13,863 nt of DNA from a virus. Of this stretch, positions 1 through 13,863 are shown one piece after another. Within the stretch, counting starts at the first letter, position 1. Each line of letters starts with the position of its first letter. A program made the translations under genes and the position numbers. The stretch covers positions 128,001-141,863 of IMG/VR virus record IMGVR_UViG_3300024999_000044. The stretch is one strand, 5' to 3'. The notes under the pieces are model-generated. The model had not been told where the DNA came from. It saw nothing but the letters and a program-made list of their open reading frames with translations, and did not search any database.

Positions 1-1
1 G

Positions 2-919
2 CTGCCATATAATTCTAACATGGCGCAGTTTTCAGATAACGGTATAGATTTTCATGCTCCCTATGGGGAAAGATTGAGATCATGGAATAAATGCAATGCT
101 GAAGGATTTGTGTTCAATCCACTGGATCAGCTTGTTGATGTGTACAAAAAAATACAAGCTGACAAGGATACCCGGCAAGCTGTAGCAGTGATATACAATC
201 CGCTGTTTGATAATAACTTTATTGAGACTAAAGACCGTCCATGCAATATGATTTTGACTTTTAAGGTCCGTAAAAACAAACTTGAGATGGTGGTATTTAA
301 CCGCAGTAATGATCTGCATTGGGGACTTTTCGGTGCTAATCTGTGCCAATTTTCCACTATACAGGAGGTTATGGCCTCATGGTTAGGTATTGAAGCAGGC
401 ACTTATACTCACTTTACAGATTCTCTCCATGTATATCTTGAGGATTATGGAAGTGACATATCAAAGGAAATAACGGATTGTGAACAATGGGATGTTCCAG
501 CAATCGGCAATCCCAGGATTAGTAGCAGTTTTGAGGAGTTTCATAGATTGCTGTCTTACTTTGAAACGGATATTAACCCTTTGATACGGAATATAAAGCA
601 GCTAGATGGGGCAGAAAGCATTTTGAGGGCTGTGAGTAAAGTGAGAGACCCTTACCTTGTCACTACATTTCTTGCCATGGCTGCTTACAGAGCATATAAC
701 CTGAGTTTGTTTGAACCTATGAGAGAATTTTTAGATGCACTGCCCCATGGTCAATGGAGAATATCATGTCTCAGATTCTTATCTTCCAAGTATGGTAAAT
801 TTAATGAATCTAGTCACTCTCCAAAACTAACCAACTTTGATCAGGATTTCCTAAACCTATTCTCCAGTTATCCTGAGGAAGTGAAAGATTATATCATGCG
901 TACTGACATCAAGGCGTAA
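2..919 (+). CDS. Thymidylate synthase-family enzyme (ThyA / dUMP hydroxymethylase-like). 5'-partial: the N-terminal ~90 aa lie upstream of the window. Carries a ~100 aa C-terminal extension.
   Basis: The translation has ThyA-family landmarks in the right order. YGERLRSW matches YGxQWRxW. DTRQAVAVIYNP matches the DSRRxIxSAWNP loop. RPCNMILTFKV contains the catalytic-Cys P-C motif. FNRSNDLHWGLFGANL matches YQRSxDxxLGxPFN. DSLHVY matches GDxHxY. There is no in-frame stop between window position 2 and the first ATG at 20, and the ThyA N-terminal third is absent, so the gene is truncated by the window edge. About 155 aa follow the HxY motif, against about 55 in E. coli ThyA. The stop is TAA at 917-919. 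Confidence 0.8.
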   Translation: MPYNSNMAQFSDNGIDFHAPYGERLRSWNKCNAEGFVFNPLDQLVDVYKKIQADKDTRQAVAVIYNPLFDNNFIETKDRPCNMILTFKVRKNKLEMVVFNRSNDLHWGLFGANLCQFSTIQEVMASWLGIEAGTYTHFTDSLHVYLEDYGSDISKEITDCEQWDVPAIGNPRISSSFEEFHRLLSYFETDINPLIRNIKQLDGAESILRAVSKVRDPYLVTTFLAMAAYRAYNLSLFEPMREFLDALPHGQWRISCLRFLSSKYGKFNESSHSPKLTNFDQDFLNLFSSYPEEVKDYIMRTDIKA

Positions 920-944
920 AATTTCAAGGGGTTGGTTTTTTATT

Positions 945-971
945 AGGAGGGGTTCGCCCCTCCTAATTTTA
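945..971 (+). terminator. Rho-independent terminator or attenuator-like hairpin directly after the ThyA-like gene
   Basis: aggagggg-ttcg-cccctcct is an 8-bp G/C-rich stem with a UUCG tetraloop. It is followed by aatttta. Only 14 nt separate it from the next start codon, so partial read-through is likely. Confidence 0.55.
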
Positions 972-985
972 TACGGAGGTGTACT

Positions 986-1396
986 GTGAAAATACATGTT
1001 GGTGGCAAGAACATAGTGGCAGTTGATTTTGATGGGACTATAACGGAAATAGTGGGAAATGGATATCATGTTGGATATACCTTGAAACTCAGGAGGCACT
1101 GCAAAGAGGTGTTACTAGATCTCCACCGTAATGGAGTAAGACTGATCCTATGGACTTGCAGGACAGGAGTAGCGTTAGAGGAAGCGATCCTCTTTTTAAA
1201 AGAGGAGGGACTTTTTCATGTGTTTAGTTCTGTTAATGATCATCTACCTGAGGTAATTGAGGAATGGTTATTAAAGGGCTGTGAGTTATCAAGAAAGGTG
1301 TATGCTGATGTGTACATTGATGACCATAACCAAACACAAGAACTGGATTGGCATGCAATAGAAGATCAATTATGGAAGAAATGGGGAAGGTATTAA
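986..1396 (+). CDS. Small HAD-superfamily phosphatase (candidate 5'-(deoxy)nucleotidase)
   Basis: GTG start at 986 with SD ggagg at 975-979, spacer 6. All four HAD motifs are present in order. Motif I is VAVDFDGTIT (DxDGT). Motif II is ILWTCRTG (Thr). Motif III is SRKVYAD (Lys). Motif IV is VYIDDHN (DD). The protein is 136 aa with no cap domain. Confidence 0.75.
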   Translation: MKIHVGGKNIVAVDFDGTITEIVGNGYHVGYTLKLRRHCKEVLLDLHRNGVRLILWTCRTGVALEEAILFLKEEGLFHVFSSVNDHLPEVIEEWLLKGCELSRKVYADVYIDDHNQTQELDWHAIEDQLWKKWGRY

Positions 1397-1921
1397 ATGG
1401 AATATAGCAATGAGTACCATAATCGTTGCAATGCATCACAACATCCTGAGGGAGACTTTAACCAAGATACTACACCCAGCGACCTGACGCAAAATGATTT
1501 CACTAAGTTGTTCGAGAGTTTAAAGTGGTTAAAAGATATGAATCCTAGATCAGACAATCAAGCCATGCAGGAAATTATACCACTCTTACTTGCTGTTCAG
1601 TATGATAAAGAGGGTTCATACGGGAACAGCTGGTGTAAGCACGGTGAAGTAAGATCCATCTTGCCAAATATTGATCGTAAGTACGACAGATTAGACACTA
1701 TAGTGCAGTCAGAACTAAATGGTTCCAGACCTAAATTACCTAACAACAGGCCATCGAGCATGTCAAATGAACAATTTGACAGCTTAGTGGGAGAGAGCAA
1801 AATTGATGCGGTTGCGGATTTAGCTAACTATTGTATTTTATATATGGGGTGGTTAAAGAAAAATTACCCAGATGCCTTTGACACATGGGTAAGGAAAAAT
1901 GTTCCTGGGTATGCTTGGTAA
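1397..1921 (+). CDS. Hypothetical protein; possible all-alpha NTP-pyrophosphatase-like (MazG / DUF1599-like) fold
   Basis: ATG at 1397 abuts the TAA of the HAD gene. SD gaagg at 1386-1390, spacer 6. The string YGNSWCKHGEVRSILPNIDRKYDRLDTIV followed by IDAVADLANYCILYMGWL resembles, from memory, the YGxSW...G...DKxxRL / DxLxDLxNY pattern of DUF1599 / MazG-like proteins. No EExxE motif was identified, so the assignment is tentative. Confidence 0.5.
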   Translation: MEYSNEYHNRCNASQHPEGDFNQDTTPSDLTQNDFTKLFESLKWLKDMNPRSDNQAMQEIIPLLLAVQYDKEGSYGNSWCKHGEVRSILPNIDRKYDRLDTIVQSELNGSRPKLPNNRPSSMSNEQFDSLVGESKIDAVADLANYCILYMGWLKKNYPDAFDTWVRKNVPGYAW

Positions 1922-2107
1922 AAGTATAACTGCCCCTTTCTTCCATCAACGTAATACCCCAGGTACAACAAAAATGTTTTAACATGTCTGGGGAGAGGAT
2001 TTTTCTGTGGGTGGTTTTTTAAGTCAGAAGGGTCACAGCAAGAGAACTTACTTAATATGTGAGGGAAACCTGAGTGCGCCACTATAACAATATTAGGGGG
2101 AAGCAAA

Positions 2108-2452
2108 ATGAATAAGCAGGACATAGTGAAAGCCATTTCCAAAGACACCGGACTTACCCAAGTATCAATCAATAAAACAATTTCTTCGCTAGAGAAATTG
2201 GTGGGGGAACTCTTAGCTCAAGGTGAGAGAGCCCAGCTTACCGGATTTGTAACTTTTAAACCTGTATACCGTGCGGCTCGTAAGGGCTTTGATCCCATTA
2301 ATAAGGTTCCTATGGATATCGCTCCTGCAATCGGTGTATCGGTCAAGGCCGGGGATAAGATTCGTAAGGCCACTGAGGGCTTGGACGTATCTAAGTTTGC
2401 ACCTGCTCCAGGTGAGGTAATCGAACCTGAAGAGGACGAAACAGTAGTTTAA
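2108..2452 (+). CDS. HU/IHF-family (type II) DNA-binding protein, TF1-like, with an acidic C-terminal tail
   Basis: SD aggggg at 2095-2100, spacer 7. The N-terminus MNKQDIVKAISKDTGLTQVS is typical of HU. The arm region GFVTFKPVYRAARKGFDPINKVPMDIAPAIGVSVKAG matches the HU/IHF beta-arm consensus. From memory, the DTGLTQVS, QLTGF, KPVxRxARKGF, IAPxxGVSVKxG and KAxEGL strings are nearly the same as phage SPO1 TF1. The tail PEEDETVV is acidic. Confidence 0.85.
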   Translation: MNKQDIVKAISKDTGLTQVSINKTISSLEKLVGELLAQGERAQLTGFVTFKPVYRAARKGFDPINKVPMDIAPAIGVSVKAGDKIRKATEGLDVSKFAPAPGEVIEPEEDETVV

Positions 2453-2479
2453 TACTAAATTTAAGTGACCGCCGGCTTT

Positions 2480-2506
2480 AAACCCCTAAGTAATACTTAG
2501 GGGTTT
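2480..2506 (+). terminator. Perfect 12-13 bp hairpin downstream of the HU gene (weak terminator or RNA stability element)
   Basis: aaacccctaagt-aat-acttaggggttt is a perfect inverted repeat. The T-run tttttat lies about 20 nt downstream rather than adjacent, so intrinsic termination is uncertain. Confidence 0.4.
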
Positions 2507-2530
2507 CCTAATGCCCGAATAATTTTTATG

Positions 2531-2547
2531 TATATAAAGGAGTGGTG
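2531..2547 (+). promoter_or_regulatory. Conserved tatataaagg-N-(a)gtggtg / aggtg element overlapping the Nudix RBS (copy 1 of 2)
   Basis: tatataaaggagtggtg is at 2531-2547 and the ATG is at 2551. The same 10-mer plus ggtg recurs at 8611-8626 in front of the HD gene. It is AT-rich, resembles a -10 box and the T4 late promoter TATAAATA, and is fused to a Shine-Dalgarno sequence. Confidence 0.35.
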
Positions 2548-2550
2548 CAT

Positions 2551-3126
2551 ATGAATTTGGAAACTTTATGGAAAAATAAGTGGATTTCAATACGTAAGAG
2601 ATCGGATGGGTATACCTATTTACACGAGGACAAATGCAACGGCATGTTGGTGGCCATCTTACCATTTAAATTTCTGGCAAGGGATGAAATGTGCTATCTT
2701 GCTAGGTTTGAAGTTATACCACCACATTTACTGACAGATCAAACATTGCAGGAAGCATCAAAAAATCCACCACCCTCCTGTATCACAGGTGGTGTGGATA
2801 TACCAGATCCTCTTGATCTAGATAGGGAAGTGTTAAGAGAGTTAGAAGAGGAAGCTGGGTATATAGTAGACAAGAGTAAACTAATTTCATTAGGGTCTAT
2901 TAACCAATCTAAGATAGCAGATACAATAATTTACTTGTTCGCTGTAAATGTAACTGGTCTTGGTAAGATTAAACCATTAGGGGACGGCAGTAAATTAGAA
3001 AAAACTGCCAAATGTAAATGGATCACAGAACCATTGGCAATATGGGGATCTGACCCTCTTATGCCAGTTATTTTATTAAGGTTAAAAAATGCAGTAAACA
3101 ATAAGAAGATGTTGATCAAGGGATAA
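2551..3126 (+). CDS. Nudix hydrolase (ADP-ribose / nucleoside-diphosphate pyrophosphatase-like)
   Basis: ATG at 2551 with SD aggag at 2538-2542, spacer 8. The ORF track's 2542 start is a GTG 3 codons upstream. Nudix box: GGVDIPDPLDLDREVLRELEEEAGY matches REUxEExGU exactly and Gx5Ex7 approximately. The N-terminal WISIRKRSDGYTYL...GMLVAILPF is typical of NudF-like enzymes. Confidence 0.8.
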   Translation: MNLETLWKNKWISIRKRSDGYTYLHEDKCNGMLVAILPFKFLARDEMCYLARFEVIPPHLLTDQTLQEASKNPPPSCITGGVDIPDPLDLDREVLRELEEEAGYIVDKSKLISLGSINQSKIADTIIYLFAVNVTGLGKIKPLGDGSKLEKTAKCKWITEPLAIWGSDPLMPVILLRLKNAVNNKKMLIKG

Positions 3127-3182
3127 GTTTATATACCTACTATATGTGGGTATTTTTATGTCAGGAGTGAAGTTTTGGAGTT

Positions 3183-3214
3183 CCCTCCTTTTTAATAAAA
3201 AGGGGGAGTTTACA
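3183..3214 (+). terminator. Rho-independent terminator after the Nudix gene
   Basis: ccctccttttt-aat-aaaaagggggag forms a stem of about 10 bp with one G-U pair. It is followed by tttacatt. Confidence 0.5.
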
Positions 3215-3373
3215 TTATGTCATGCCTATGGGCAAATTTGACTGTGAAAGTGGGAGGTATCAATGTTACTCAAGTGGTGATGGGTGTGTATTTATGATGC
3301 CAGATTCCAAAGCCAAAGCATGTGCTGATAGATATGGGGAAGGACCCGATGCAACTAATGAGGAGGAATAATA

Positions 3374-3829
3374 ATGTTTCCAATACAAATACATCAGTTG
3401 GAACCCAAGGTAGTATCTACATTTGTGCGCACTGATAACACCTCTATAAAGGCTGCGCCTAGAGTTAAGTGGTCTAAACGTAATCGAGACAAAGTAACTA
3501 AACTCATGAAGCAGATCGGTAAGCTGCGTAAAGAAGGTCTATTGGAGTATGAAAGGGTGTGTTCCGAAAGAATTGAGTACAGACCCATTACTATAGATCT
3601 AGACAGACTATCGGAGTTTATGCATGACAGGTTGCGATATTTTCATGCTAAGGAACATGTTGAGATAGAGACTATCATTATGGGTAAAAGGTATTATCAG
3701 CATTATATTGATGGGGTGGTTAAATCTTCATTCTATGTGCCAATAGCCAAGTATAATTTCAGTGGCATAAGGGTGCTAATTGATCCCCTAATTGATGGTA
3801 TGGTTTTTGTGAGAAAGGAAACTACATGA
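3374..3829 (+). CDS. Hypothetical protein (151 aa), first gene of a translationally coupled trio ending in the DNA polymerase
   Basis: Strong SD aggagg at 3361-3366, spacer 7. No recognisable motif. The TGA at 3827-3829 overlaps the ATG at 3826 of the next ORF (ATGA). Confidence 0.65.
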   Translation: MFPIQIHQLEPKVVSTFVRTDNTSIKAAPRVKWSKRNRDKVTKLMKQIGKLRKEGLLEYERVCSERIEYRPITIDLDRLSEFMHDRLRYFHAKEHVEIETIIMGKRYYQHYIDGVVKSSFYVPIAKYNFSGIRVLIDPLIDGMVFVRKETT

Positions 3830-4005
3830 TTAAGATAGAAGAAGATGGTAAGAGTTTTTGTAACTGTTGTGATGCCAGAGACACTAATAATCCTAAAAGA
3901 GTATTGTTTGTAAGGGGAAGTTCTAATGCTATAGCTCTTACTCTCTGTAAGACTTGCAGGGAAGACTTATTAGACCTACTTCTAAAAGAAGGAGGACACA
4001 TATGA
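3826..4005 (+). CDS. Small zinc-ribbon protein (59 aa), absent from the ORF track
   Basis: The translation is MIKIEEDGKSFCNCCDARDTNNPKRVLFVRGSSNAIALTLCKTCREDLLDLLLKEGGHI. It has two Cys pairs (CNCC and CKTC) separated by 25 residues. SD-like gagaaaggaa at 3811-3820. ATGA overlap at both ends: with the upstream ORF at 3826-3829 and with the polymerase start at 4002-4005. Confidence 0.5.
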   Translation: MIKIEEDGKSFCNCCDARDTNNPKRVLFVRGSSNAIALTLCKTCREDLLDLLLKEGGHI

Positions 4006-6800
4006 GTTGCACTGAATGTAAATTACACACCCAGTGTAAGAATGTAAGACAAATGGGGTCTGGAAAGAAATCTGCTAGAATCATGGTAGTATCTGAATCA
4101 CCATACCAGACCGAGAATTTAAGGAACCAGCATATGTCAGGTAAGGGTGGAAGGTTACTTAGGGCATTACTTTCTGATGTGGAAATAGATCTTGATGATG
4201 TGTATTTCACAACAGTAGTTAAGTGCTCCACCCCAGAGGATAGACTGCCAAAACCTGATGAAATAGATGCATGCAAAGATTACTTACTATCTGAAATAGA
4301 TGTGATCCAGCCTGAGATTATTGTGCCGACAGGTAACATAAGTATGAAGGTAACTATGGGGCTTGTTGGTATCACTAAGCACAGAGGTAAAATGATAGAA
4401 AAAGACGGGATTAAATATTTTCCCATCATTCACCCCAACTTTGTGTTGAAGCAGCCAAAATGGCTAGAAATTTTTGGCAAGGACATAGAGAACCTGTCGA
4501 TCATCCTGAATGGAAGGGACATGGATCAAGAAGGTTCTCAGCCAGAGGAACGTAGATATTGTGACACGTATGAAGAAGCTATTGATGAGTTGTGGAGATT
4601 GATAAAGCTACCACCTTCACGTATAGTAGTGGACATAGAGGCAAAAAACTTAAATCCTTGGAAGGCAGATTCTAAGGTACTCAGTATCGGATTCTCTGAC
4701 AGACCAGGATATGCAAGTGTAATATGTCTTTATCATCGGGACACCCCTTTTACAGGTAACCAAATAGGAACCATGGTAAAGTTTCTGAGATTCTTGTTTC
4801 AGAACACTCTACATGAGTTTATTGAGCAGTATGGTAAGTTTGACACTAAATATCTCCTTATCAGTCTAGGTATTGTGACCATCAATTTTAAGTGGGACCC
4901 TATGCTAATGCATTATATTGGAGTCACTGAGGAAAGTGGTACTCATGGTTTAAAAGACTTCGCATGGCAATACACCAATAAAGGTGGGTATGACAACGAA
5001 TTAGATGATTTTAAGAAGACGCTGCCAGAAAAGGATAGATACAATTACGACCTGATTCCTTGGAACATATTAAAGCCTTACAATGGCATGGACTGTGATG
5101 TAACCTACAGGGTGTTTGATCAACTACTCCCTGTAATAGAAGATGGGGATGAAGACATTAGATGGTTGTACCATAACATCATGATACCAGGATCTATGGC
5201 TTTACAAACCATCGAAATTAATGGAATGTATGTAGATACTAAATGGTTAGATTTTCTAAACGAAAAATACCCAGAAGAGATTGAGAGGATATCTGACAAA
5301 TTACATCAGTTCCCTGAGGTTCTTTCAGTAGAAAGAGAGTATGATAGTAAATGGGAAGAAAGATGTAATATTGGGCTTATAAAGAAAGCTGTGCGCACAG
5401 AGGAACAGCAGGATAAATTTGAAAAGTACAAGAGGTATGATCCATCTAAGAGGGGAAACAAGTTCAAATTTAGCTCTACTCAGCAGTTGCAGGAACTCCT
5501 GTATGTCCGTCTCGGACTGAGGGGTGAGATGCTAACTGAGAAGGGTGAGGATTTTCGTAAGGAAAATGGCATAAGCATGAAGAGATTAAAGGAGCTACCC
5601 TACACATGTTTTAGCACTAGTGATGATGCTCTAAAGGGGTTGGCTAAACAACACCCTATGCCAGAAATACTGCAAGAATTTAGGAAAGCTAACCATCTAA
5701 TGAACAACTTTGTAAGGGGTATGTATGAAAACTTAACTCCAGATGGTCTTGTACACCCCACTATGAATATTCATGGCACAGCCACTGGACGTACTAGCTC
5801 CAATGACCCTAACGCCCAGCAATTCCCACGCAAGGTCAGTAGTCCCCTTCTGTTTCAATATCACCATGAAATAAAAAGATTATTTGTCTCTCGCTTTGGG
5901 GAAGATGGGGTAATCATACAATTAGACTATTCTCAGGTGGAAGTAAGAATCTTAGCGGTGTTGGCAGATGATGATGTCCTTAAGAATTTGTTTAAAAGTG
6001 GTATTGACATCCATATTGATAATGCTTCAGATGCATTCGGTATCCCTGCCAGCGAAGTCACTAAAGACCAACGTACAGCCAGTAAAAAAGTTACCTTTGG
6101 CATCATCTATCAAGAATCTCCACAAGGCTTATCTGATGACTTAAAAATGGAAGGAATCATAATGTCTAAGGCGGAGTGTGCTGATTTCATTGCTAAGTGG
6201 TTTAAGAAATTTGTTAAGAGCGATAAATGGATTAAAAACACTAAGAGAATGGTCAGAATAGAAAAGCAGGTTAAAAATGCTTTAGGTCGTATACGCCACC
6301 TGCCAACTATTGATTCCACTGAAGATTCAATACGAGGGGAGGCTGAACGCCAAGCCTGCAATAGTCCTATCCAATCTACATCCGCTGACATAACCTTAAT
6401 GGCATTAATCCAAATAAACAAATGGTTAAAAGATACCAACAAGCGTTCTGTTATATTTGTAACAGTTCATGACTCTATCGGTTTAGACTGCCCCAAAGAT
6501 GAAGTATTAGAAGTATCCTCGCATGTTAAGTACATTATGGAGAATATCTCAGAATACAATGAGAAGTATAAATTCCTAGGAGATATGCCTCTTGTGGTAG
6601 ATCTAGAAATCGGGTATGACTACGGGACCTTATATGAGTGCAAGGGGTATAATCTAGAAGAGATTGGGGTAGACAATTTTATCCAATCTCAACAAGCTAA
6701 GAAAGCTGCAAAGGAACAAGAGGCGTATTCTAAGGCTGAAGCTTCTGGCACCATAATACCAAAATTTGCATACTCATACTGGAACAAGGTTTCTTCATAG
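4002..6800 (+). CDS. DNA polymerase I-type (family A) with an N-terminal degenerate uracil-DNA-glycosylase family-4 domain and an active-looking 3'-5' exonuclease domain (SPO1-type polymerase architecture)
   Basis: Preferred start is ATG 4002 (SD aggagg at 3990-3995, spacer 6, ATGA coupling). The ORF track's ATG 3954 has no SD. UDG4-like N-terminal domain: CTECKLHTQC plus VVKCSTPEDRLP...DAC correspond to the Fe-S Cys ligands and vkCRPPxNRxPxxxExxxC. MVVSESPYQTE replaces GEGPGxxE. GKGGRLL corresponds to GxAGxLL. IHPNFVLK corresponds to HPSxxLR. 3'-5' exonuclease motifs: ExoI VVDIEAKNL, ExoII YGKFDTKYLL, ExoIII YNGMDCDVTYRVF. Polymerase motifs: A is LDYSQVEVRILAVLADDD, B is RTASKKVTFGIIYQESPQGL, C is VTVHDSIGLD. 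Confidence 0.9.
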   Translation: MSCTECKLHTQCKNVRQMGSGKKSARIMVVSESPYQTENLRNQHMSGKGGRLLRALLSDVEIDLDDVYFTTVVKCSTPEDRLPKPDEIDACKDYLLSEIDVIQPEIIVPTGNISMKVTMGLVGITKHRGKMIEKDGIKYFPIIHPNFVLKQPKWLEIFGKDIENLSIILNGRDMDQEGSQPEERRYCDTYEEAIDELWRLIKLPPSRIVVDIEAKNLNPWKADSKVLSIGFSDRPGYASVICLYHRDTPFTGNQIGTMVKFLRFLFQNTLHEFIEQYGKFDTKYLLISLGIVTINFKWDPMLMHYIGVTEESGTHGLKDFAWQYTNKGGYDNELDDFKKTLPEKDRYNYDLIPWNILKPYNGMDCDVTYRVFDQLLPVIEDGDEDIRWLYHNIMIPGSMALQTIEINGMYVDTKWLDFLNEKYPEEIERISDKLHQFPEVLSVEREYDSKWEERCNIGLIKKAVRTEEQQDKFEKYKRYDPSKRGNKFKFSSTQQLQELLYVRLGLRGEMLTEKGEDFRKENGISMKRLKELPYTCFSTSDDALKGLAKQHPMPEILQEFRKANHLMNNFVRGMYENLTPDGLVHPTMNIHGTATGRTSSNDPNAQQFPRKVSSPLLFQYHHEIKRLFVSRFGEDGVIIQLDYSQVEVRILAVLADDDVLKNLFKSGIDIHIDNASDAFGIPASEVTKDQRTASKKVTFGIIYQESPQGLSDDLKMEGIIMSKAECADFIAKWFKKFVKSDKWIKNTKRMVRIEKQVKNALGRIRHLPTIDSTEDSIRGEAERQACNSPIQSTSADITLMALIQINKWLKDTNKRSVIFVTVHDSIGLDCPKDEVLEVSSHVKYIMENISEYNEKYKFLGDMPLVVDLEIGYDYGTLYECKGYNLEEIGVDNFIQSQQAKKAAKEQEAYSKAEASGTIIPKFAYSYWNKVSS

Positions 6801-6900
6801 TCAGGAACACCAATTATATCCCTAACCCTTAAGAATCAAACGGAACCTTTCGGAGTAAACTTTTTGAAACGAGGTTTTGGAGTATCCTTAATAGGGGGGA

Positions 6901-7059
6901 ATGATGAGTTTGGTGGAAAAGAAAATATATCACTTGGTTAACAGCAGCAATAGCATACGGGTTAAGTGTACTGAAAAATATCTGCCACATTGGCTGGCTC
7001 GTGGATTCGAGGTGGAATTCATAGAATTTAAGAACGTAGATTTGTCACAGGATAATTAG
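6901..7059 (+). CDS. Small hypothetical ORF (52 aa) between the polymerase and its terminator, absent from the ORF track
   Basis: ATGATG at 6901/6904 is preceded by gggggga at 6894-6900. The translation is MMSLVEKKIYHLVNSSNSIRVKCTEKYLPHWLARGFEVEFIEFKNVDLSQDN, ending TAG 7057-7059. A strong terminator follows 20 nt later. No homology is recognisable. Confidence 0.3.
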   Translation: MMSLVEKKIYHLVNSSNSIRVKCTEKYLPHWLARGFEVEFIEFKNVDLSQDN

Positions 7060-7078
7060 TATAAGTTTTCTTACGAAA

Positions 7079-7113
7079 GTCTGCTCTCCTTAATAGGGGG
7101 AGCAGACTTTTTG
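7079..7113 (+). terminator. Strong rho-independent terminator ending the polymerase transcription unit
   Basis: gtctgctctcc-ttaata-gggggagcagac is an 11-bp stem with one G-U pair, followed by ttttt. It shares the tgctctcctt 10-mer with the terminator at 8581-8610. Confidence 0.8.
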
Positions 7114-7169
7114 CGTGCAGATTTTTTAATCTGATGAGACTCCACTCAGCAGGAAGTGAGGTGCGTATA

Positions 7170-7607
7170 ATGAAAGAATTACGAGTGAAAGTAAAATTAT
7201 CTTCAGATCGAATACTAGATGTGGATATAAGTAAAGAACTCACTATAGACACTAACAACCTGAGTAAAGAGTTGGTGTCTCAGGCAGGTAAGTATGCTTG
7301 GTGGGCGGTAGCTGAAGAACTTTCTAGGAAAAAGGTGGACATGGATCATAACTCTATTGATAATATAAAACAGGAGTTATCACAAGAGTATGGAAACCAA
7401 AATTATTTAGGTGACAGACGCTTAAAGAAGGCAGTATCTAGGTATGTCAGATCCAACATACAACATTCCTTTTTACTTCTTATTAAAGAAGCGTTTGAGC
7501 ATAAACGGGACACATTAATGTTACTGAGGGATAATCAGTCTTATGAGGGTGTTCTGCGCAGTTACAACTCAACCATATCCTATTATCTAATGGCACTCGG
7601 GGCGTAA
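7170..7607 (+). CDS. Probable UvsY-like recombination mediator protein
   Basis: Preferred start is ATG 7170 (SD gaggtg at 7158-7163, spacer 6). The ORF track's 7134 start lacks an SD. The segment IDTNNLSKELVSQAGKYAWWAVAEELSRKKVDM aligns by eye to T4 UvsY IDSTKLQYEAANNVMLYSKWLNKHSSIKKEM, sharing ID.t.L...Y..W.....KK.M. Length is about 145 aa, close to UvsY. It lies directly upstream of the gp32-like SSB. Confidence 0.4.
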   Translation: MKELRVKVKLSSDRILDVDISKELTIDTNNLSKELVSQAGKYAWWAVAEELSRKKVDMDHNSIDNIKQELSQEYGNQNYLGDRRLKKAVSRYVRSNIQHSFLLLIKEAFEHKRDTLMLLRDNQSYEGVLRSYNSTISYYLMALGA

Positions 7608-7645
7608 CGCCCACTTTGCCAAGTAAAGAAAGTGAGGAATTTAAA

Positions 7646-8554
7646 ATGGCAGGATTAGACATTGCGAAGTTAGCGAAACGATTAGAGGAACTTAATACTA
7701 AGAATACTAGTGGTGGAGGGGCCAACTTCATAGACCTAAAAGATGGAAGAAATGTGGTTCGTGTGTTACCACCTGCGGAAGGCAAGGAAGACTTTGCCCA
7801 AGAAGCATTTGTGCACTATGGGGTAGGTAAGACAGAAACTAACAAAAAGGGTACCATGATTGTATGCCCTACAACACATGGAGATAACAAACGCTGTCCA
7901 GTGTGCGATGCCTCTAAAGAATTCAAGGCCCTCTCTAAGAAGAAAGACGATGCCATGTCCAAGCAATCTAATGAGCTGTACCGGAAAAAACGTGTATACA
8001 TGAATGCCATCGACAGATCTGTTGACATCGAGGCCCTAGCTAGGGATGCCGAGGGGAACTACCTAGACCCTGATGGGAAAATATTCAATCCGGTTCAGAT
8101 CTTAGCAGTTGGAACTACAGTGTACAAGTCAATAATCGGTATTATATGTGATCCAGATTATGGAGACATCACTGACCCTGTTACAGGTTTGGATATTATC
8201 ATAACCAAAGCGGGTACTGGGATGAATACGGATTATGAGACTAAGACCGTTCGTAAGGAATCCCCTATTGGTTTTAGCGAGTGGAACGCAAAGTTAAACG
8301 ATTTGTCCACTTACGCTGTGTGTAAAACTTACAAAGAAATTCTAGGAATACTAAATGGGGACGAGCCGGACGAAGACGAGCCCGAAACTACTTCTAGTAC
8401 ATCCTCCAGATCCACTGACACAACTCAGGATACTACTCCCCCAAAGGAAAATACATCCACAGGGGATGGTGGCTCTGGTGATACTGGGGAATCTGATGAA
8501 GCTAGGATGGAACGAGAGATTGCGGAAGCCTTAGCAAAACGTAAGGCTAGGTAA
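7646..8554 (+). CDS. T4 gp32-like single-stranded DNA-binding protein (zinc-binding, acidic C-terminal tail)
   Basis: Preferred start is ATG 7646 (SD gtgagga at 7632-7638, spacer 7). The ORF track's 7616 start is a TTG. RVLPP matches gp32 RFLP. CPTTHGDNKRCPVCD matches the gp32 zinc motif C..STHGDYDSCPVC. The C-terminus is acidic and Ser/Thr-rich: DEPDEDEPETTSSTSSRSTDTTQDTT...GESDE. Confidence 0.8.
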   Translation: MAGLDIAKLAKRLEELNTKNTSGGGANFIDLKDGRNVVRVLPPAEGKEDFAQEAFVHYGVGKTETNKKGTMIVCPTTHGDNKRCPVCDASKEFKALSKKKDDAMSKQSNELYRKKRVYMNAIDRSVDIEALARDAEGNYLDPDGKIFNPVQILAVGTTVYKSIIGIICDPDYGDITDPVTGLDIIITKAGTGMNTDYETKTVRKESPIGFSEWNAKLNDLSTYAVCKTYKEILGILNGDEPDEDEPETTSSTSSRSTDTTQDTTPPKENTSTGDGGSGDTGESDEARMEREIAEALAKRKAR

Positions 8555-8580
8555 GGCTATAAAAGAAACATTGTGCATAG

Positions 8581-8610
8581 AAGGAGAGCAGACGTGCTCT
8601 CCTTTTTTAC
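8581..8610 (+). terminator. Rho-independent terminator after the SSB gene
   Basis: ggagagca-gacg-tgctctcc is an 8-bp stem followed by ttttttac. Confidence 0.8.
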
Positions 8611-8626
8611 TATATAAAGGCAGGTG
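8611..8626 (+). promoter_or_regulatory. Conserved tatataaagg-caggtg element (copy 2 of 2) immediately after the terminator and upstream of the HD gene
   Basis: Identical 10-mer tatataaagg as at 2531, again followed by aggtg/ggtg. The GTG start is at 8635. There is no room for a -35 box because the preceding bases are the terminator stem. This fits a -10-only (T4-late-like) promoter or a translational operator. Confidence 0.35.
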
Positions 8627-8634
8627 TTCTTCCA

Positions 8635-9426
8635 GTGAAACGAATAGAATTAGAAATAGAGCCAATCAGTGTATTTGGGTGGGAGTTAGATAAAATAGTC
8701 AATGAGCAGTGGCGTAGCATGTGTGCCCTAGCTTTGTACCGAGCACCTAATTATTTTTGGACAGCCCCTGCTAGCACCTCTGGTAAGTACCACCCTAGAA
8801 CTTCATTAGGAATGGGGGGATTAATCAACCATACTAAGGCTGCATTTTTAGTGGCTGAAAACCTGTTCACTAATGAGACATGTGCCCCTTTTACGGATGA
8901 ACAAAAAGATATAATAAGAATAGCTATAATACTACATGATTGCTGTAAGCAGGGGTTTGATGGGTTGGGGCATACAGCACCAAATCATCCCATGCTTGTT
9001 AGATCGTTGCTGAAGGTATTTGAGCCTGAAGATTTAGAGGTTGTGTGGGATGACATATGTGGTTGCATAGACTCGCATATGGGACAGTGGAACACAAATA
9101 AGGAAAAGGTAGAAATATTACCAAAGCCACAAACAGAAATGCAGAAATTTGTGCATTTATGTGACTTTATTGCATCCCGCAAGGATATAGAAGTAGATGT
9201 AAACAGAAGAGAAGGTCATACTAAGGAAGAATCTGCGTGGAAAGATGAAAGGGCTTCAGAAGGGCAGATAAACTTTATTGCAATCTTAGTTAAAAAGGCT
9301 ACGGATTCCGGTGTATCCTACAGTAATCTTCCCTTCAATGATGTGGGGGTTGATACACTTACTAAAGGATTAGCTTCCGATATAATCACCGCATACAAGA
9401 AGGTGTTGGGGATGGGGGATAAATAA
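8635..9426 (+). CDS. HD-domain metal-dependent phosphohydrolase (candidate dNTP/dNMP hydrolase)
   Basis: GTG start at 8635 with aggtg at 8622-8626, spacer 8. HD-domain signature in order: KYHPRTSLGMGGLINHTKAAF (first His), IAIILHDCCKQG (the HD doublet), DSHMGQW (His), VHLCDFIASRKD (distal Asp). The C-terminal ~80 aa are unassigned. Confidence 0.7.
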   Translation: MKRIELEIEPISVFGWELDKIVNEQWRSMCALALYRAPNYFWTAPASTSGKYHPRTSLGMGGLINHTKAAFLVAENLFTNETCAPFTDEQKDIIRIAIILHDCCKQGFDGLGHTAPNHPMLVRSLLKVFEPEDLEVVWDDICGCIDSHMGQWNTNKEKVEILPKPQTEMQKFVHLCDFIASRKDIEVDVNRREGHTKEESAWKDERASEGQINFIAILVKKATDSGVSYSNLPFNDVGVDTLTKGLASDIITAYKKVLGMGDK

Positions 9427-9434
9427 TACCAAAG

Positions 9435-9468
9435 AGCAGGAGTCAAAATCAGACCTCCTGCTTTTTTA
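9435..9468 (+). terminator. Rho-independent terminator after the HD gene
   Basis: agcaggagtc-aaaatca-gacctcctgct is an 8-10 bp stem with a one-base bulge, followed by tttttta. Confidence 0.75.
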
Positions 9469-9489
9469 TGGAGAAGGGGGAAATTTGAG

Positions 9490-9882
9490 ATGATGCGTGA
9501 ATTGGTATTATTTAACACGATTGAAGATATTAAGAAGTTTATACACGACCAGGGATACACTTATATACACCAGCTGTATAACCAAAATGAGATGGTATTA
9601 CCTGGAGTGTATCTTCCAATCTTATCAGAGGAGCAGTTTAAACCCTATGGAATTAATTTTGAGTATGTAGATAAGCCTTGTTCACTAGAGGAACTATTAA
9701 ACAAGCACAATCCCTGGAGTGGTGTAGGTCATATAAGAGGTAAACACAAGAGTGTAAACATCAATCCATCTTCTGAAGTAAGGAGATGCATAAACAGTGT
9801 GATTCAGAGTGGTGGTATTCACCCTAATTTTCACATGTTTTACACTCGTAGAACAGGGAGTGATATTGCTGATGAAACGTAA
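9490..9882 (+). CDS. Hypothetical protein (130 aa); its 3' end overlaps the sigma-factor start by 11 nt
   Basis: ATGATG at 9490, with aggggg at 9474-9479 upstream. No recognisable motif. The TAA at 9880-9882 lies downstream of the sigma ATG at 9872, indicating translational coupling. Confidence 0.55.
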   Translation: MMRELVLFNTIEDIKKFIHDQGYTYIHQLYNQNEMVLPGVYLPILSEEQFKPYGINFEYVDKPCSLEELLNKHNPWSGVGHIRGKHKSVNINPSSEVRRCINSVIQSGGIHPNFHMFYTRRTGSDIADET

Positions 9883-11020
9883 TCCGTATCTAGAAGGGAC
9901 ACCTGATGAGTTTATTGTCAACAATATGAATTTGGCTAGAGACGTAGCATGGCCCTTCATAAGGGCTTCATTTGGTAACCCTGCTAATACTTTTACTAAA
10001 GAAGACTTGTTATCAATAGCGTGTGAAGGCTTAATAAAAGCATACCAGAGATTTGATCCTACTAAATATGAAGGTGAGGGTGGTGAAGGAGTCAAGTTCA
10101 GCACGTATGCCATACCAGTGATTAGGGGTACCCTAATGGTAAATCTGAGGGACTTGAACTCTATGATAAGACCTAGCAGAGAATCCCTTGCTCTCTTGAC
10201 TTTAGTTAGAAAGTCGGGGCTGACTTCCAATTCTCCAATTAGTGAGCTGGTAGAAAAGGCAGGATTAACGGTTAAGGAAGCAATGGCAGTCAGCAGGTCC
10301 ACTAAATTGTCTGTGGTGGATAGCTTAGATCGTCCACTGGAAACTGATGACGGAGGTATAGTGTTTGGAGATACTATTCCTTTAAGGAATGAAGATAGTG
10401 AAAAATTATTAATCCTTAGTGACTTTATACGACGTTTAGAACCTCGACTTCAGAGGGTGTATCAGTTGCGCGTAGCAGAGGGCAAGTCACAAGCTGAAGT
10501 AGGAAGAGCCTTAAAACTCAGTCAAGTTCAGGTTGGTAGATTAGAGTATCAGTTGTTTTCGTACGCTGAACAATATGGGAAGGAAGAAAAAATGCTGAAG
10601 ATTCCAATACCCTCACGATCAGAGGGTTGGGGTAGTTCTCAGAATTACCCTAGGGAATGTAAAGAACGAGCTATAGAGTTATCTAAGACGCATGTACAAG
10701 CTGGACAAATAGTTAAGAAAATTGCTGAAGAATTCCCCGGAGAAACCATACCACCGAGCTCCATACACAACTGGGTGAGTCACTCTAGAAAGAAATTGGG
10801 GATCATAGTAGAACCGAGCACTAAGAGATCTAGAAAATATTCTATTGAAGCGGAAAACAGAGCAAAGGAACTGTTGAGTAGGGGGGTAAGTAGTAGGGAA
10901 GTGTGTAACATGCTGAGGGCGGAGTTCCCAAAGGAGAACATACCAGCATCATCGGTGTACGTTTGGGGAAGCAGGATAAGAGCAGATCTGTACAAGAAAG
11001 AAATGAATGGAGGGAAATAA
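9872..11020 (+). CDS. RNA polymerase sigma factor, SigF/SigG-like sigma-70 family, with a C-terminal extension of two tandem transposase-like HTH repeats
   Basis: Preferred start is ATG 9872. The ORF-track start at 9809 would add a hydrophobic 21-aa leader encoded inside the previous ORF. Region 2: LLSIACEGLIKAYQRFDP...KFSTYAIPVIRGTLMVNLRD matches the sporulation-sigma pattern. Region 4.2: LQRVYQLRVAEGKSQAEVGRALKLSQVQVGRLEYQ. The sigma fold ends after about 245 aa. A further ~140 aa then contain two similar ~55 aa modules: ECKERAIELSKTHVQAGQIVKKIAEEFPGETIPPSSIHNWVSHSRKKLG and IEAENRAKELLSRGVSSREVCNMLRAEFPKENIPASSVYVWGSRIRADL. Both resemble the IS3-type transposase N-terminal HTH. Confidence 0.8.
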   Translation: MKRNPYLEGTPDEFIVNNMNLARDVAWPFIRASFGNPANTFTKEDLLSIACEGLIKAYQRFDPTKYEGEGGEGVKFSTYAIPVIRGTLMVNLRDLNSMIRPSRESLALLTLVRKSGLTSNSPISELVEKAGLTVKEAMAVSRSTKLSVVDSLDRPLETDDGGIVFGDTIPLRNEDSEKLLILSDFIRRLEPRLQRVYQLRVAEGKSQAEVGRALKLSQVQVGRLEYQLFSYAEQYGKEEKMLKIPIPSRSEGWGSSQNYPRECKERAIELSKTHVQAGQIVKKIAEEFPGETIPPSSIHNWVSHSRKKLGIIVEPSTKRSRKYSIEAENRAKELLSRGVSSREVCNMLRAEFPKENIPASSVYVWGSRIRADLYKKEMNGGK

Positions 11021-11953
11021 ATGTCTCATACACTGGTAATTGATGGAAATAACATTGCTAGCAGGGCCTACCACACTCCCCAAGGGGAGCTACGCTCCCG
11101 TAAGGGGGAACCCACGGGTACTATTCTTGGTACTTTAAACTCATTAAAAGGGTATCTTGAAAAGTTTCAAGATGCCACACGTATGGTGGTAGTGTGGGAT
11201 TACGGAAAATCGGCAGAGCGTATGAAGCTGCACCCTGGCTACAAAATGAACCGTGATCACACTAGAGATGACCATACTCCGGAGGAAATACTAAAATTTG
11301 AAGAGTATAAGTGGCAAATGAATGAGATACACAAATTTCTTCCCAGCTTAGGCATAAACTCCCTGAAGGTTAAGGGTTGGGAAGCAGATGACCTTGTATA
11401 CGCTACAGTTTGTCTATTAGATGGCAGAAAGACCATTATTTCTTCAGACAAAGATATGCTCCAATTAATAAATGAAGAGGTGTCCGTGTTTGACCTATAT
11501 AAGGATATTATTGTGGGACCTCATAACTTTGAGGTGAAGACTGGGGGGGTAAGTCAGAAATGCTATCTTGGATACAGATCTTTATTGGGGGATGATTCAG
11601 ATAATATCGGGGGTGTACCTGGTATTGGTAAGGTTACTGCTAAAAAGCTTATGGACACTTACGGACATATAGACATCATGTTTAAGGATAAAAACAATCT
11701 CATGGCCAAGTCTAGAACTGCTGCCATATTCAAGCCTGAAAATCTAGCCATCATAGGTAGAAATCACAAATTGATGAATTTAGGTTACGTGAACTACGGG
11801 GACATACGTGAAGACATACTAGGCATGATAACCCCGAGACATGAGTTAAACACCCAAGGGGTTAAGGACTTTTTCATGAGGCTGGAGTTTGTATCTGTGA
11901 TGTCTAATTTCACCAGTTGGATGACTTATTTTAGGCTATTGGGGGAGGACTAA
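11021..11953 (+). CDS. 5'-3' exonuclease / flap endonuclease (T4 RNase H / T5 D15 / PolA N-terminal domain family)
   Basis: SD ggaggg at 11009-11014, spacer 6. The ATG directly follows the sigma TAA. Family motifs present: LVIDGNNIASRAY, VVVWDYG, YKMNRD, GWEADDLVYAT, ISSDKDMLQL, GDDSDNIGGVPGIGKVTAKKL. Confidence 0.85.
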   Translation: MSHTLVIDGNNIASRAYHTPQGELRSRKGEPTGTILGTLNSLKGYLEKFQDATRMVVVWDYGKSAERMKLHPGYKMNRDHTRDDHTPEEILKFEEYKWQMNEIHKFLPSLGINSLKVKGWEADDLVYATVCLLDGRKTIISSDKDMLQLINEEVSVFDLYKDIIVGPHNFEVKTGGVSQKCYLGYRSLLGDDSDNIGGVPGIGKVTAKKLMDTYGHIDIMFKDKNNLMAKSRTAAIFKPENLAIIGRNHKLMNLGYVNYGDIREDILGMITPRHELNTQGVKDFFMRLEFVSVMSNFTSWMTYFRLLGED

Positions 11954-11955
11954 AA

Positions 11956-12156
11956 ATGCTAGAGGAATGTAGATATTGCGGGTTTAAGCATGTTGACCAG
12001 TCATGTGTAGAATTTAAGAGAAACCATGTCAGCAATAGGGTGAACCCATATTGCACCAAGTGTGGCAGAAGACTATATAATGAAAAGGTAAGAGAACTAA
12101 GAGGAAGTGGTACTGAATGCACCATGAGAAGTCTTTCTTGTAGCCATGCTACTTAA
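11956..12156 (+). CDS. Small zinc-ribbon protein (66 aa)
   Basis: SD ggggagg at 11942-11948, spacer 7. The translation is MLEECRYCGFKHVDQSCVEFKRNHVSNRVNPYCTKCGRRLYNEKV.... It contains CRYCG and CTKCG (CxxC...CxxC), spaced 25 residues apart. Confidence 0.5.
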   Translation: MLEECRYCGFKHVDQSCVEFKRNHVSNRVNPYCTKCGRRLYNEKVRELRGSGTECTMRSLSCSHAT

Positions 12157-12170
12157 AAGGATTAGGATAG

Positions 12171-12198
12171 AGCCTCCCATAGGGGAGGCTTGATTTTT
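12171..12198 (+). terminator. Rho-independent terminator
   Basis: agcctccc-atag-gggaggct is an 8-bp stem followed by tgattttt. Confidence 0.75.
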
Positions 12199-12320
12199 CA
12201 CCTGTTTTGTGAGAAAATTAAAGAGAGGATTAATTCAACTAGTATAAAATATATGGCTTTTTACTGTTTGGAGTAAATTCTCATACTTTGGATTTAATTA
12301 AAAATGAGGGGGCAAACATA

Positions 12321-13589
12321 TTGGAAATACGTTTAATTGAAGAATGTTTCAATCTTTTTGAGGCTATTGGTAGTACCGCTTCTCGTAATATAAAAGCTGA
12401 GTACATTAAGACTGGCATGGAGAATCAAGCATTTCGCAAATTAGTTGAAGCCACCTACAACCCCTTCAGGATGTACAATATTAAGAAAGTACCGGAAGTT
12501 CTTAGCCCCTGTGATTGTGGGACTCATGAAGACAGGTTTACCATGTTCATGGATCTATTGCAGGATCTACAAGACCGAAAGCTGACTGGTAATATTGCTG
12601 TTGATGCTGTGTTTATATTTTTTAATTTATGCTCTAGCACTGAGGTCAAATGGTACTCCAAGGTACTCCAGAAGGATCTTAAAATTGGAGTGACGGACAA
12701 GAGTATTAATAAAGCTGAAAAGGGATTCATACCTACATTTGACTGCATGTTGGCACATCCATTTAAAAAATGGCCCAAACGATTTATTGAGGAGATCAAA
12801 TGGGATGGATACAGATGCCTGGGATTCCATCTAGATGATGATACGGTAGAGTTATTCACACGGAATGGGCACCGAATACTTGGGTACACAGGAATAGAGT
12901 ATGAACTTAAATTGAATACTGCTAAGGGGTTTGTATATGATGGAGAGATCGTGTCCAGAGATGAGTCATTTAATTCCACCCAAAAGGATATATTCAAGTT
13001 AGGAAAAACCGATAAAGATGGTGTGCTAAACATCTTTGACATGATACCAATACAAGAGTTCAAAGCAGGTAAAGGAACTCAACCATTGTATAGGAGACTT
13101 AGATCCATGTCAGTGAGTATTAATACTGAAGGTGCCAATTTCTTAAATCGTGAACTGCCAGGTAAGTTTTTTACTCCAGATGACGAAGAGGAAGTCCTGA
13201 AGGCATATGCAACCCTCACGGATGCAGGATACGAAGGTGCTATGATCAAGGATCTTGATGCTGTGTATGAGTGTAAACGCACATATTCATTACAAAAGCT
13301 AAAGCCTATGGAGACAATTGACCTAGTGGTCATTGGTGTGGAAGAAGGTAAAAAGGGTACTGATCTTGAAGGAACGTTGGGAGCTTTAGTAGTGGATTTT
13401 GAGGGTAACTCCGTCAATGTAGGCTCCGGGTTTAAGAAAAAGAATGGAGAAAGAGATAACCTGTGGGCTAGACGTAATGATCTCATAGATAGGACTATTG
13501 AGATAAGATACCAGGAGATTACCAGCAACCAGAAAGGTACAAAATCTCTGCGGTTCCCTACATTTGTCAGGTTCAGAGACGACAAATAG
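12321..13589 (+). CDS. ATP-dependent DNA ligase, T4 gp30-like, with an N-terminal DNA-binding domain
   Basis: There is no in-frame ATG before residue 43. TTG at 12321 has the SD gaggggg at 12306-12312, spacer 8. This start gives M-E-I-R-L-I-E-E-C-F-N-L-F-E-A-IGST, which is collinear with the T4 ligase MILKILNEIASIGST. An alternative TTG at 12288 is in frame but has no SD. RKLTGNIAVDAV matches T4 RKLTGNAAIEEL. Motif I is EEIKWDGYRC (KxDGxR). Confidence 0.8.
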   Translation: MEIRLIEECFNLFEAIGSTASRNIKAEYIKTGMENQAFRKLVEATYNPFRMYNIKKVPEVLSPCDCGTHEDRFTMFMDLLQDLQDRKLTGNIAVDAVFIFFNLCSSTEVKWYSKVLQKDLKIGVTDKSINKAEKGFIPTFDCMLAHPFKKWPKRFIEEIKWDGYRCLGFHLDDDTVELFTRNGHRILGYTGIEYELKLNTAKGFVYDGEIVSRDESFNSTQKDIFKLGKTDKDGVLNIFDMIPIQEFKAGKGTQPLYRRLRSMSVSINTEGANFLNRELPGKFFTPDDEEEVLKAYATLTDAGYEGAMIKDLDAVYECKRTYSLQKLKPMETIDLVVIGVEEGKKGTDLEGTLGALVVDFEGNSVNVGSGFKKKNGERDNLWARRNDLIDRTIEIRYQEITSNQKGTKSLRFPTFVRFRDDK

Positions 13590-13612
13590 GAAGTATAGAG
13601 GCGTGGGTAAAT

Positions 13613-13863
13613 ATGAAAAACATACATGTTGTAGCAGGAAACGTTACCCTGATATTTTTAGTTAGCAAAAAGAAAGTTGTGAAGATACGTTATATAAATA
13701 CTGAGGATTTATCTATATTTTTGTGCTATAAATATACTTGGTACTTTAATGCCAAGCCTGATAAGTATATACAAGTAGTGGGTTATAGAAGTGAGACATT
13801 GGCAAGATTTCTAACAAATTGTCCAAAAGAGAGGGTCGTGATCAATATTGATCACGACCCTCT
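13613..13863 (+). CDS. HNH homing-type endonuclease, 3'-partial (runs off the window end)
   Basis: ATG at 13613 (gtggg at 13603-13607, spacer 5), open to the window end. The reading KIRYINTEDLSIFLCYKYTWYF...KYIQVVGYRSETLARFLTNCPKERVVINIDHDP follows the phage HNH-endonuclease pattern vDxeDfelxxxykWxxxxxgYaxrxxxxxxxxlHRlixgxxxgxxvDHiNgnxlDNR. The region is markedly more AT-rich than the flanking genes, which is typical of acquired homing-endonuclease genes. Confidence 0.5.
   Translation, partial: MKNIHVVAGNVTLIFLVSKKKVVKIRYINTEDLSIFLCYKYTWYFNAKPDKYIQVVGYRSETLARFLTNCPKERVVINIDHDP
13830..13863. repeat. Perfect palindrome of at least 34 bp (17-bp half-sites) abutting the window end
   Basis: agagggtcgtgatcaat|attgatcacgaccctct is a perfect inverted repeat with no spacer. 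Its symmetry centre lies between 13846 and 13847. It reaches the last base of the window, so it may extend further. It lies within the HNH ORF, where it encodes ERVVINIDHDP. Confidence 0.9.

Follow-up and report, generated by a model that had tools for sequence, protein, structure and literature searches.

Chimeric molecules that arise at near-perfect palindromes during library preparation carry the neighbouring sequence as its inverted complement (the PDSM model), and they introduce false SNVs and indels exactly where the palindrome has a mismatch or a gap (PMC10908179). Among the artefacts of MDA, inverted chimeras make up 85-91%, with overlaps that are mostly 5-8 nt long (peak at 7) and with favoured hotspots of 12-13 nt (PMC9984789). 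During de Bruijn graph assembly, unitigs end at inverted loops, namely at k-mers with a palindromic (k-1)-suffix (Rahman and Medvedev 2022, PMC9528984). Imperfect palindromes are also targets of template switching by the Ripley mechanism, which was first described in rIIB of phage T4 and for which the Lovett laboratory has reporters (PMC7202029; Ripley 1982).

The window analyzed here, a 13,863-nt stretch of phage DNA (IMG/VR record IMGVR_UViG_3300024999_000044, positions 128,001 to 141,863), ends in a perfect 34-bp palindrome. We consider this palindrome to be most probably a fold-back artefact of the contig end, produced by inverted chimeric reads that were seeded at a natural quasi-palindrome; most likely, it is not a feature of the phage genome. 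As in PDSM and MDA inverted chimeras, the bases beyond the centre repeat the preceding ones as their exact inverted complement, the changes fall on a gap and a mismatch, and a short self-complementary seed, here of 14 bp, is present; unlike those chimeras, which are seen in reads, this putative one shows itself only indirectly, in the last 10 assembled bases. As at the inverted loops of assembly graphs (PMC9528984), the contig would, at k=35, end with a palindromic (k-1)-suffix, and a simulated walk with this k reproduced the end at 13863. However, the palindromes considered there are real genomic ones, whereas the true genome here has none that is long enough, and the palindromic k-mers must therefore have been supplied either by chimeric reads or by a variant allele. 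As in quasipalindrome template switching, an indel and a substitution arising together perfect an imperfect repeat and undo a frameshift; unlike in the described cases, none of the seven other contigs with the open reading frame (ORF) has the changed allele, and a continuation into the normal flank is not seen.

The terminal palindrome and its read-through counterparts

The palindrome spans positions 13830-13863 and comprises two 17-nt arms with zero spacer that are 100% complementary (17/17). The left arm (13830-13846, without assigned strand) reads AGAGGGTCGTGATCAAT, the right arm (13847-13863) reads ATTGATCACGACCCTCT, and pairing is intact up to the last window base, 13863. Terminal or internal, no longer perfect palindrome exists anywhere in the window. 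By chance, 1.3e-6 palindromes with 17-nt arms would be expected in 13.9 kb of the same composition, and when 20.9 kb were shuffled 300 times with a Markov model, the longest arm reached 13. The recomputed arms and these counts bear out the original prediction, which had described a flawless inverted repeat with 17-bp arms that is perfect to the last base and has a negligible probability of chance occurrence. It had further placed the palindrome inside an ORF, where it encodes ERVVINIDHDP, and this reading was confirmed: the ORF that starts at 13613 ends with ...KERVVINIDHDP, and its window-end reading is ...CPKERVVINIDHDP.

The same phage was located in several public assemblies by exact-protein look-ups. 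An 86-aa frameshifted product of the ORF (P0001) is encoded on seven contigs, of which one is from Logan and six are 50-200 kb long; those of the six with a size on view measure 141.7-141.8 kb. Three of the seven were read directly: k141_465162 of ENA ERZ27254726 (141,748 bp; L011), k127_160621 of ERZ909594 (141,806 bp), and Logan SRR1658467_105987. Window positions 1-13861 align with k141_465162 without a mismatch and with a single 1-base gap, over 13,862 columns. In all three directly read contigs, the site is followed by unique sequence (...ATTGATCCACGACCCTTTAAACAATAG), a continuation that the original prediction had named as one of two outcomes that would refute it, and which is shown here by independent assemblies, not by reads. 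In k141_465162 the nearer contig end is ~40.7 kb away from the site, in k127_160621 one end is 558 bp away, and the Logan contig extends ~1.4 kb past the site; the long contigs end at different places.

Aligned at the centre, the read-through form has ...AGAGGGTCGTGATCAAT on the left and ATTGATC-C-ACGACCCTTTAAACAATAG on the right; a longer stretch reads ...AAAAGAGAGGGTCGTGATCAAT up to the centre and ATTGATCCACGACCCTTTAAACAATAGAAGAAG... beyond it. The junction sequence of this version is GATCCACGACCCTTT, and its normal downstream continuation is AAACAATAGAAGAAG. The read-through repeat is imperfect, with seven pairs on each side of the centre (a 14-bp core), a bulged C, eight pairs, a G/T mismatch, and one final pair; its halves are GGGTCGTGATCAAT to the left and, to the right, ATTGATC, the bulged C, and ACGACCC, after which the G/T mismatch follows. 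The window departs from this form by (i) the loss of a C after 13853 and (ii) a C at 13862, where the others have T. Both differences perfect the palindrome exactly, in that 13847-13863 becomes the reverse complement of 13830-13846, and the perfect 34-bp form is absent from all three read-through contigs that were read.

Three parts of the palindrome can be distinguished by this comparison. The left arm, which is the same in the window and in the three aligned read-through contigs, is by all alignments genuine phage sequence. The core GATCAATATTGATC (13840-13853, without assigned strand), a 14-bp perfect palindrome found in L001, L002, L006, and L011, exists in the genome and is the likely annealing seed for a fold-back; arms of 7 nt are at chance level, with a mean best arm of 7 in the shuffles. 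The tail ACGACCCTCT (13854-13863, without assigned strand) comprises the last 10 bases, is the sole part of the window that differs from the other assemblies, equals the reverse complement of 13830-13839, and is a putative fold-back tail. Exact-pattern scans of IMG/VR, JGI metagenome contigs, and GTDB genomes returned no copy of the window end running past 13863. Exact look-ups of the two edge-truncated products and a blastn search of a phage database gave no match, and none of the other contig ends examined carried a terminal palindrome.

As single-stranded DNA, the natural quasi-palindrome forms a hairpin of -12 kcal/mol (z = -5.5), and the perfect version in the window folds at -17.5 kcal/mol; the RNA fold of the quasi-palindrome has z = -4.6. 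It ranks as the strongest in 20.9 kb of the phage genome and was equalled in 1 of 300 shuffles. The quasi-palindrome is real and moderately unusual, and it is far from a perfect 34-mer. A terminator scan did not call it terminator-like, Rfam contained no family matching the site, and the half-site had no second occurrence in ~24 kb; a role as an intrinsic terminator or as a repeated operator was rejected on these three grounds. The DNA of P0004, the closest homologous gene (57% identity), shows no palindrome at the corresponding motif, and for the conservation of the palindrome in relatives IMG/VR offers only ligases at 30-35% identity. Hence, the proposal that the palindrome is a recognition, operator, or nicking site, one of three options in the original prediction, is unsupported for the perfect 34-bp form, which the three read-through contigs lack, and it is weakened further by the unique half-site and by the P0004 gene.

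The interrupted endonuclease gene at the site

The palindrome lies in the 5' part of an HNH_3/AP2 homing-endonuclease pseudogene (13613-13863, plus strand); in the read-through genomes, the extra C shifts the reading frame, and the ORF is interrupted by a stop after 86 aa. By itself, the truncated 83-aa product of the window matched no Pfam family, and the label "HNH ORF" given to it earlier did not hold for this product alone; it did hold once the downstream sequence was added and one C was removed. Without the extra C, the read-through sequence encodes a 172-aa protein with matches to (i) HNH_3 (Pfam PF13392; 27.9 bits against a cutoff of 24.8), (ii) AP2, below threshold (21.2 against a cutoff of 33.3), and (iii) PHROG HNH-endonuclease families, with phrog_99 matching at 1.4e-25 over residues 71-162. 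The phrog_99 match therefore spans the frameshift, and since the HNH match is obtained only with the extra C removed, the read-through genomes carry a frameshifted pseudogene.

The closest homologue, P0004, has YHIDHNTLNN where this phage has INIDHDPLNN, and the more distant homologues P0002 and P0003 contain VDHxN(G/M)DxLDN. Even in the repaired frame, this phage has Asn where the H-I-D-H motif has its first conserved His. Because of this replacement and of the frameshift in the read-through assemblies, the homing endonuclease is probably inactive. In its HNH_3 and AP2-like domains, the gene resembles the free-standing HNH_3/AP2 homing endonucleases of phages (PF13392; phrog_99), and, like other phage homing-endonuclease genes, it sits in an insertion between conserved replication and late-transcription genes that is missing in a sister lineage; unlike functional HNH_3/AP2 genes, it is frameshifted in the read-through assemblies and lacks the first His, which is replaced by Asn.

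Upstream of the insertion lies a conserved ATP-dependent DNA ligase gene (12321-13589, plus strand; Pfam DNA_ligase_A_M and DNA_ligase_OB_2), whose exact product was found on five contigs of 50-200 kb. In the sister lineage, which has a 427-aa ligase at ~80% nucleotide identity, the gp33-like gene starts 11 nt after the ligase stop, and the HNH ORF is absent between the two genes. For this reason, the ~563 bp that hold the ORF, from the ligase to the T4 gp33-like gene (window 13590-13863, continuing as L001 12570-13132), were taken as an insertion. Judged from these features, the host ORF is a free-standing homing-endonuclease gene in decay. An intact or perfect-palindrome allele was not found among 5.8 billion clustered proteins, which returned only the 86-aa form and homologues of 30-57% identity; the sensitivity of this search is imperfect, and its negatives are not fully reliable, because the 172-aa query missed P0001 despite 81 shared residues, while the 83-aa query found it.

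Three further observations concern the reading frame around the hairpin. Directly 3' of it, past the window end, CCCTTTAAAC (L001 12842-12849) holds the slippery heptamer TTTAAAC. Programmed frameshifting at this heptamer was rejected, as the shift runs from the C-terminal to the N-terminal frame, which is the wrong way to rescue the gene, and its presence is probably fortuitous. A +1 slip at CCC-T was rejected as well, as it yields IDPRPLNN and not the family motif IDH(D/N). Lastly, without the extra C the read-through sequence would form a perfect 30-bp palindrome at 13833-13861, whose left arm encodes VVIN at a place where relatives have x-x-(D/Y)-H; we speculate that an old in vivo template switch, in which the right arm (IDHD) was copied onto the left, could have destroyed the catalytic His.

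Origin of the perfect palindrome and of the contig end

In the fold-back that we propose, a strand ending in or near the 14-bp core would, in the course of library preparation or amplification, pair with itself or with another strand of its kind, and its extension would copy the left flank backwards. Past the centre, the resulting inverted chimeric molecule would be the exact reverse complement of the preceding sequence; as the chimera copies the left flank, the bulged C would therefore be deleted and the mismatched T turned into C. In a low-coverage sample, the assembler would follow the chimeric k-mers and halt where the path meets its own reverse complement (the inverted loop), 17 bases past the centre. 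Reads with GATCACGACCCTCT would then run on into the reverse complement of the upstream flank (CTTTTGGACAATTTGTTAGAAATC); the bases after ...CCCTCT would be CTTTTGGACAATTTGTTAG, and CTTTTGGACA... would stand to the right of the palindrome. Such reads would occur at low frequency and with anomalous mate orientation, and a coverage gap would be expected within about 100 nt to the right of the site. We infer the chimeric reads, this coverage gap, and the assembler settings; the assembled bases themselves show that the distal sequence is the reverse complement of the proximal one up to the contig end (17/17) and that self-complementary microhomology is present as a seed (the 14-bp core, with eight pairs after the bulge). 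Of the three options in the original prediction, only that of an inverted chimeric join at the end of the contig gained support, through the read-through assemblies and the palindrome-perfecting differences.

We simulated de Bruijn walks for the true sequence, for an unlimited fold-back, and for a real 34-bp allele. The true sequence gave no graph break at the site for any k tested. For the unlimited fold-back, modelled as the left flank followed by its reverse complement, the walk ran into an inverted loop, and the unitig ended at the centre + (k-1)/2, which is 13863 for k=35 (equivalent to K=33 with 34-mer edges). Common default settings are not known to finish at k=35/K=33, a point against the artefact. 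A hypothetical real 34-bp palindrome allele likewise ended at 13863 for k=35. According to these simulations, the contig end points to perfect-palindrome k-mers in the reads, and, because both cases give k=35, a chimera and a real allele are not separable by the end coordinate.

A restriction or ligation origin, at GATC or at SspI sites (AATATT), was also considered and rejected, as a ligation of GATC ends centres elsewhere and no such library step is indicated. In another assembly, JGI 3300025011, the contig Ga0209000_1001285 (16,615 bp; L008 = record 229-8753) has an expected end at the window-equivalent position 13783 if it is colinear. A self-complementary edge of 128 nt (K=127) would start at this position, which precedes the palindrome centre by 64 nt, and the contig may be a second assembly that was broken by fold-back at the same site.

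The main competitor of the fold-back reading is a real allele, which we regard as unlikely. Here, an in vivo quasipalindrome template switch (the Ripley model) would have eliminated the bulged C and replaced T by C in a single step, leaving a genuine 34-bp palindrome with the HNH frame restored, at which the assembler then broke the contig; the sequence after the palindrome would be AAACAATAG..., that is, the normal downstream AAACAATAGAAGAAG. The parental quasi-palindrome does exist, the mutant is more perfect by coupled changes (C lost and T to C), and template switching is known to perfect quasi-palindromes and can revert frameshifts (PMC7202029). Moreover, the 34 bp are a natural limit, since the next true base, A, cannot pair with G13829, and a palindrome of this length also ends the contig at 13863 with k=35, so that the end coordinate, equally explained by a real palindrome, counts against an artefact. 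So does the fact that both changes read sensibly, as a genuine allele would show: coding is kept with IDHDPL in frame, the PHROG HNH matches span the junction, and CTN and TTA both encode Leu. Contigs also tend to break at strain-variable sites, which makes differences located at an end less surprising than a naive calculation suggests. However, none of the seven other contigs carries the allele (0/7), and the intact product was not found in the protein collection. The window is otherwise identical to a read-through contig over 13.86 kb, and a rare, probably neutral mutation would therefore have needed to spread through a clonal population; neutrality is probable because the restored protein keeps Asn at the conserved His position, which gives selection no evident reason to favour it.

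Two other explanations fare worse. Errors in a low-quality read tail, consisting of a CC-to-C homopolymer undercall and one substitution that made the palindrome perfect by coincidence, are highly improbable: the indel does affect a run of two C, and neither difference is more than 10 bases away from the contig end, but both errors would have to hit the exact perfecting positions with the right base (at most 1 in 1000, by a rough estimate), and random errors leave unexplained a stop coordinate that fits an inverted loop. A biological terminus, be it a hairpin telomere or resolution site, as the original prediction had also proposed, or a set of fold-back replication intermediates at the true end of the genome, is scarcely credible. 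The one point in its favour is that a perfect palindrome appears at the sequence end, but the site is internal in 141.7-kb contigs with different ends (in the 141,748-bp contig, by the ~40.7 kb given above), the Logan contig reads through it, and the read-through copies carry the bulge and the mismatch and so have no long perfect palindrome. Further, the ~31 kb of annotated genes inspected (of a genome of ~142 kb) contained no protelomerase. As a single mechanism, the fold-back covers both base differences, their positions, the perfection to the last base, the contig end, and the absence of the allele elsewhere.

The locus advises caution, in that a statistically impossible palindrome at a contig end can arise from a fold-back chimera at a modest natural quasi-palindrome. 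Such fold-back ends can mimic hairpin telomeres, nuclease targets, and intact genes; here, a frameshifted HNH gene would have been falsely "repaired". Their signature is that the differences from sister assemblies all lie past the palindrome centre and are exactly those that perfect the palindrome. If the real allele were true instead, the window would hold a natural template-switch reversion of a homing-endonuclease pseudogene in an environmental phage, an instance of the Ripley mechanism in the wild and moderately interesting for mutagenesis researchers.

Genes of the surrounding replication module

The window represents a phage replication module with a family-A DNA polymerase, a gp32-like protein, an HD protein, a sigma-like protein, a 5'-3' exonuclease, and the ATP-dependent ligase. 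A thymidylate-synthase-like gene at its start (1-919, cut by the window start; L011 2111-3274) encodes 387 aa, which is longer than a typical ThyA; together with the HD-domain protein (8635-9426), it might indicate nucleotide or base modification. In the family-A DNA polymerase (3954-6800), an N-terminal domain of the uracil-DNA-glycosylase superfamily is fused to 3'-5' exonuclease and polymerase domains; its ORF has 948 aa and was called with 932 aa in other assemblies.

A sigma-70-like protein with regions 2 and 4 is encoded inside the replication module (9809-11020), and a T4 gp33-like gene and a sigma-region-2 (gp55-like) gene lie just 3' of the HNH insertion (L001 13133-13974). The three genes resemble a T4-style late-transcription set. 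Between two small ORFs, positions 7076-7110 hold an inverted repeat with 17-nt arms, AAAGTCTGCTCTCCTTA and TAGGGGGAGCAGACTTT, which are 88% complementary and separated by a 1-nt spacer; this repeat could be a transcript stem-loop. A tRNA gene (L001 16693-16764; Rfam RF00005, 63 bits) is located ~3.8 kb downstream of the window end, in the full-length genome.
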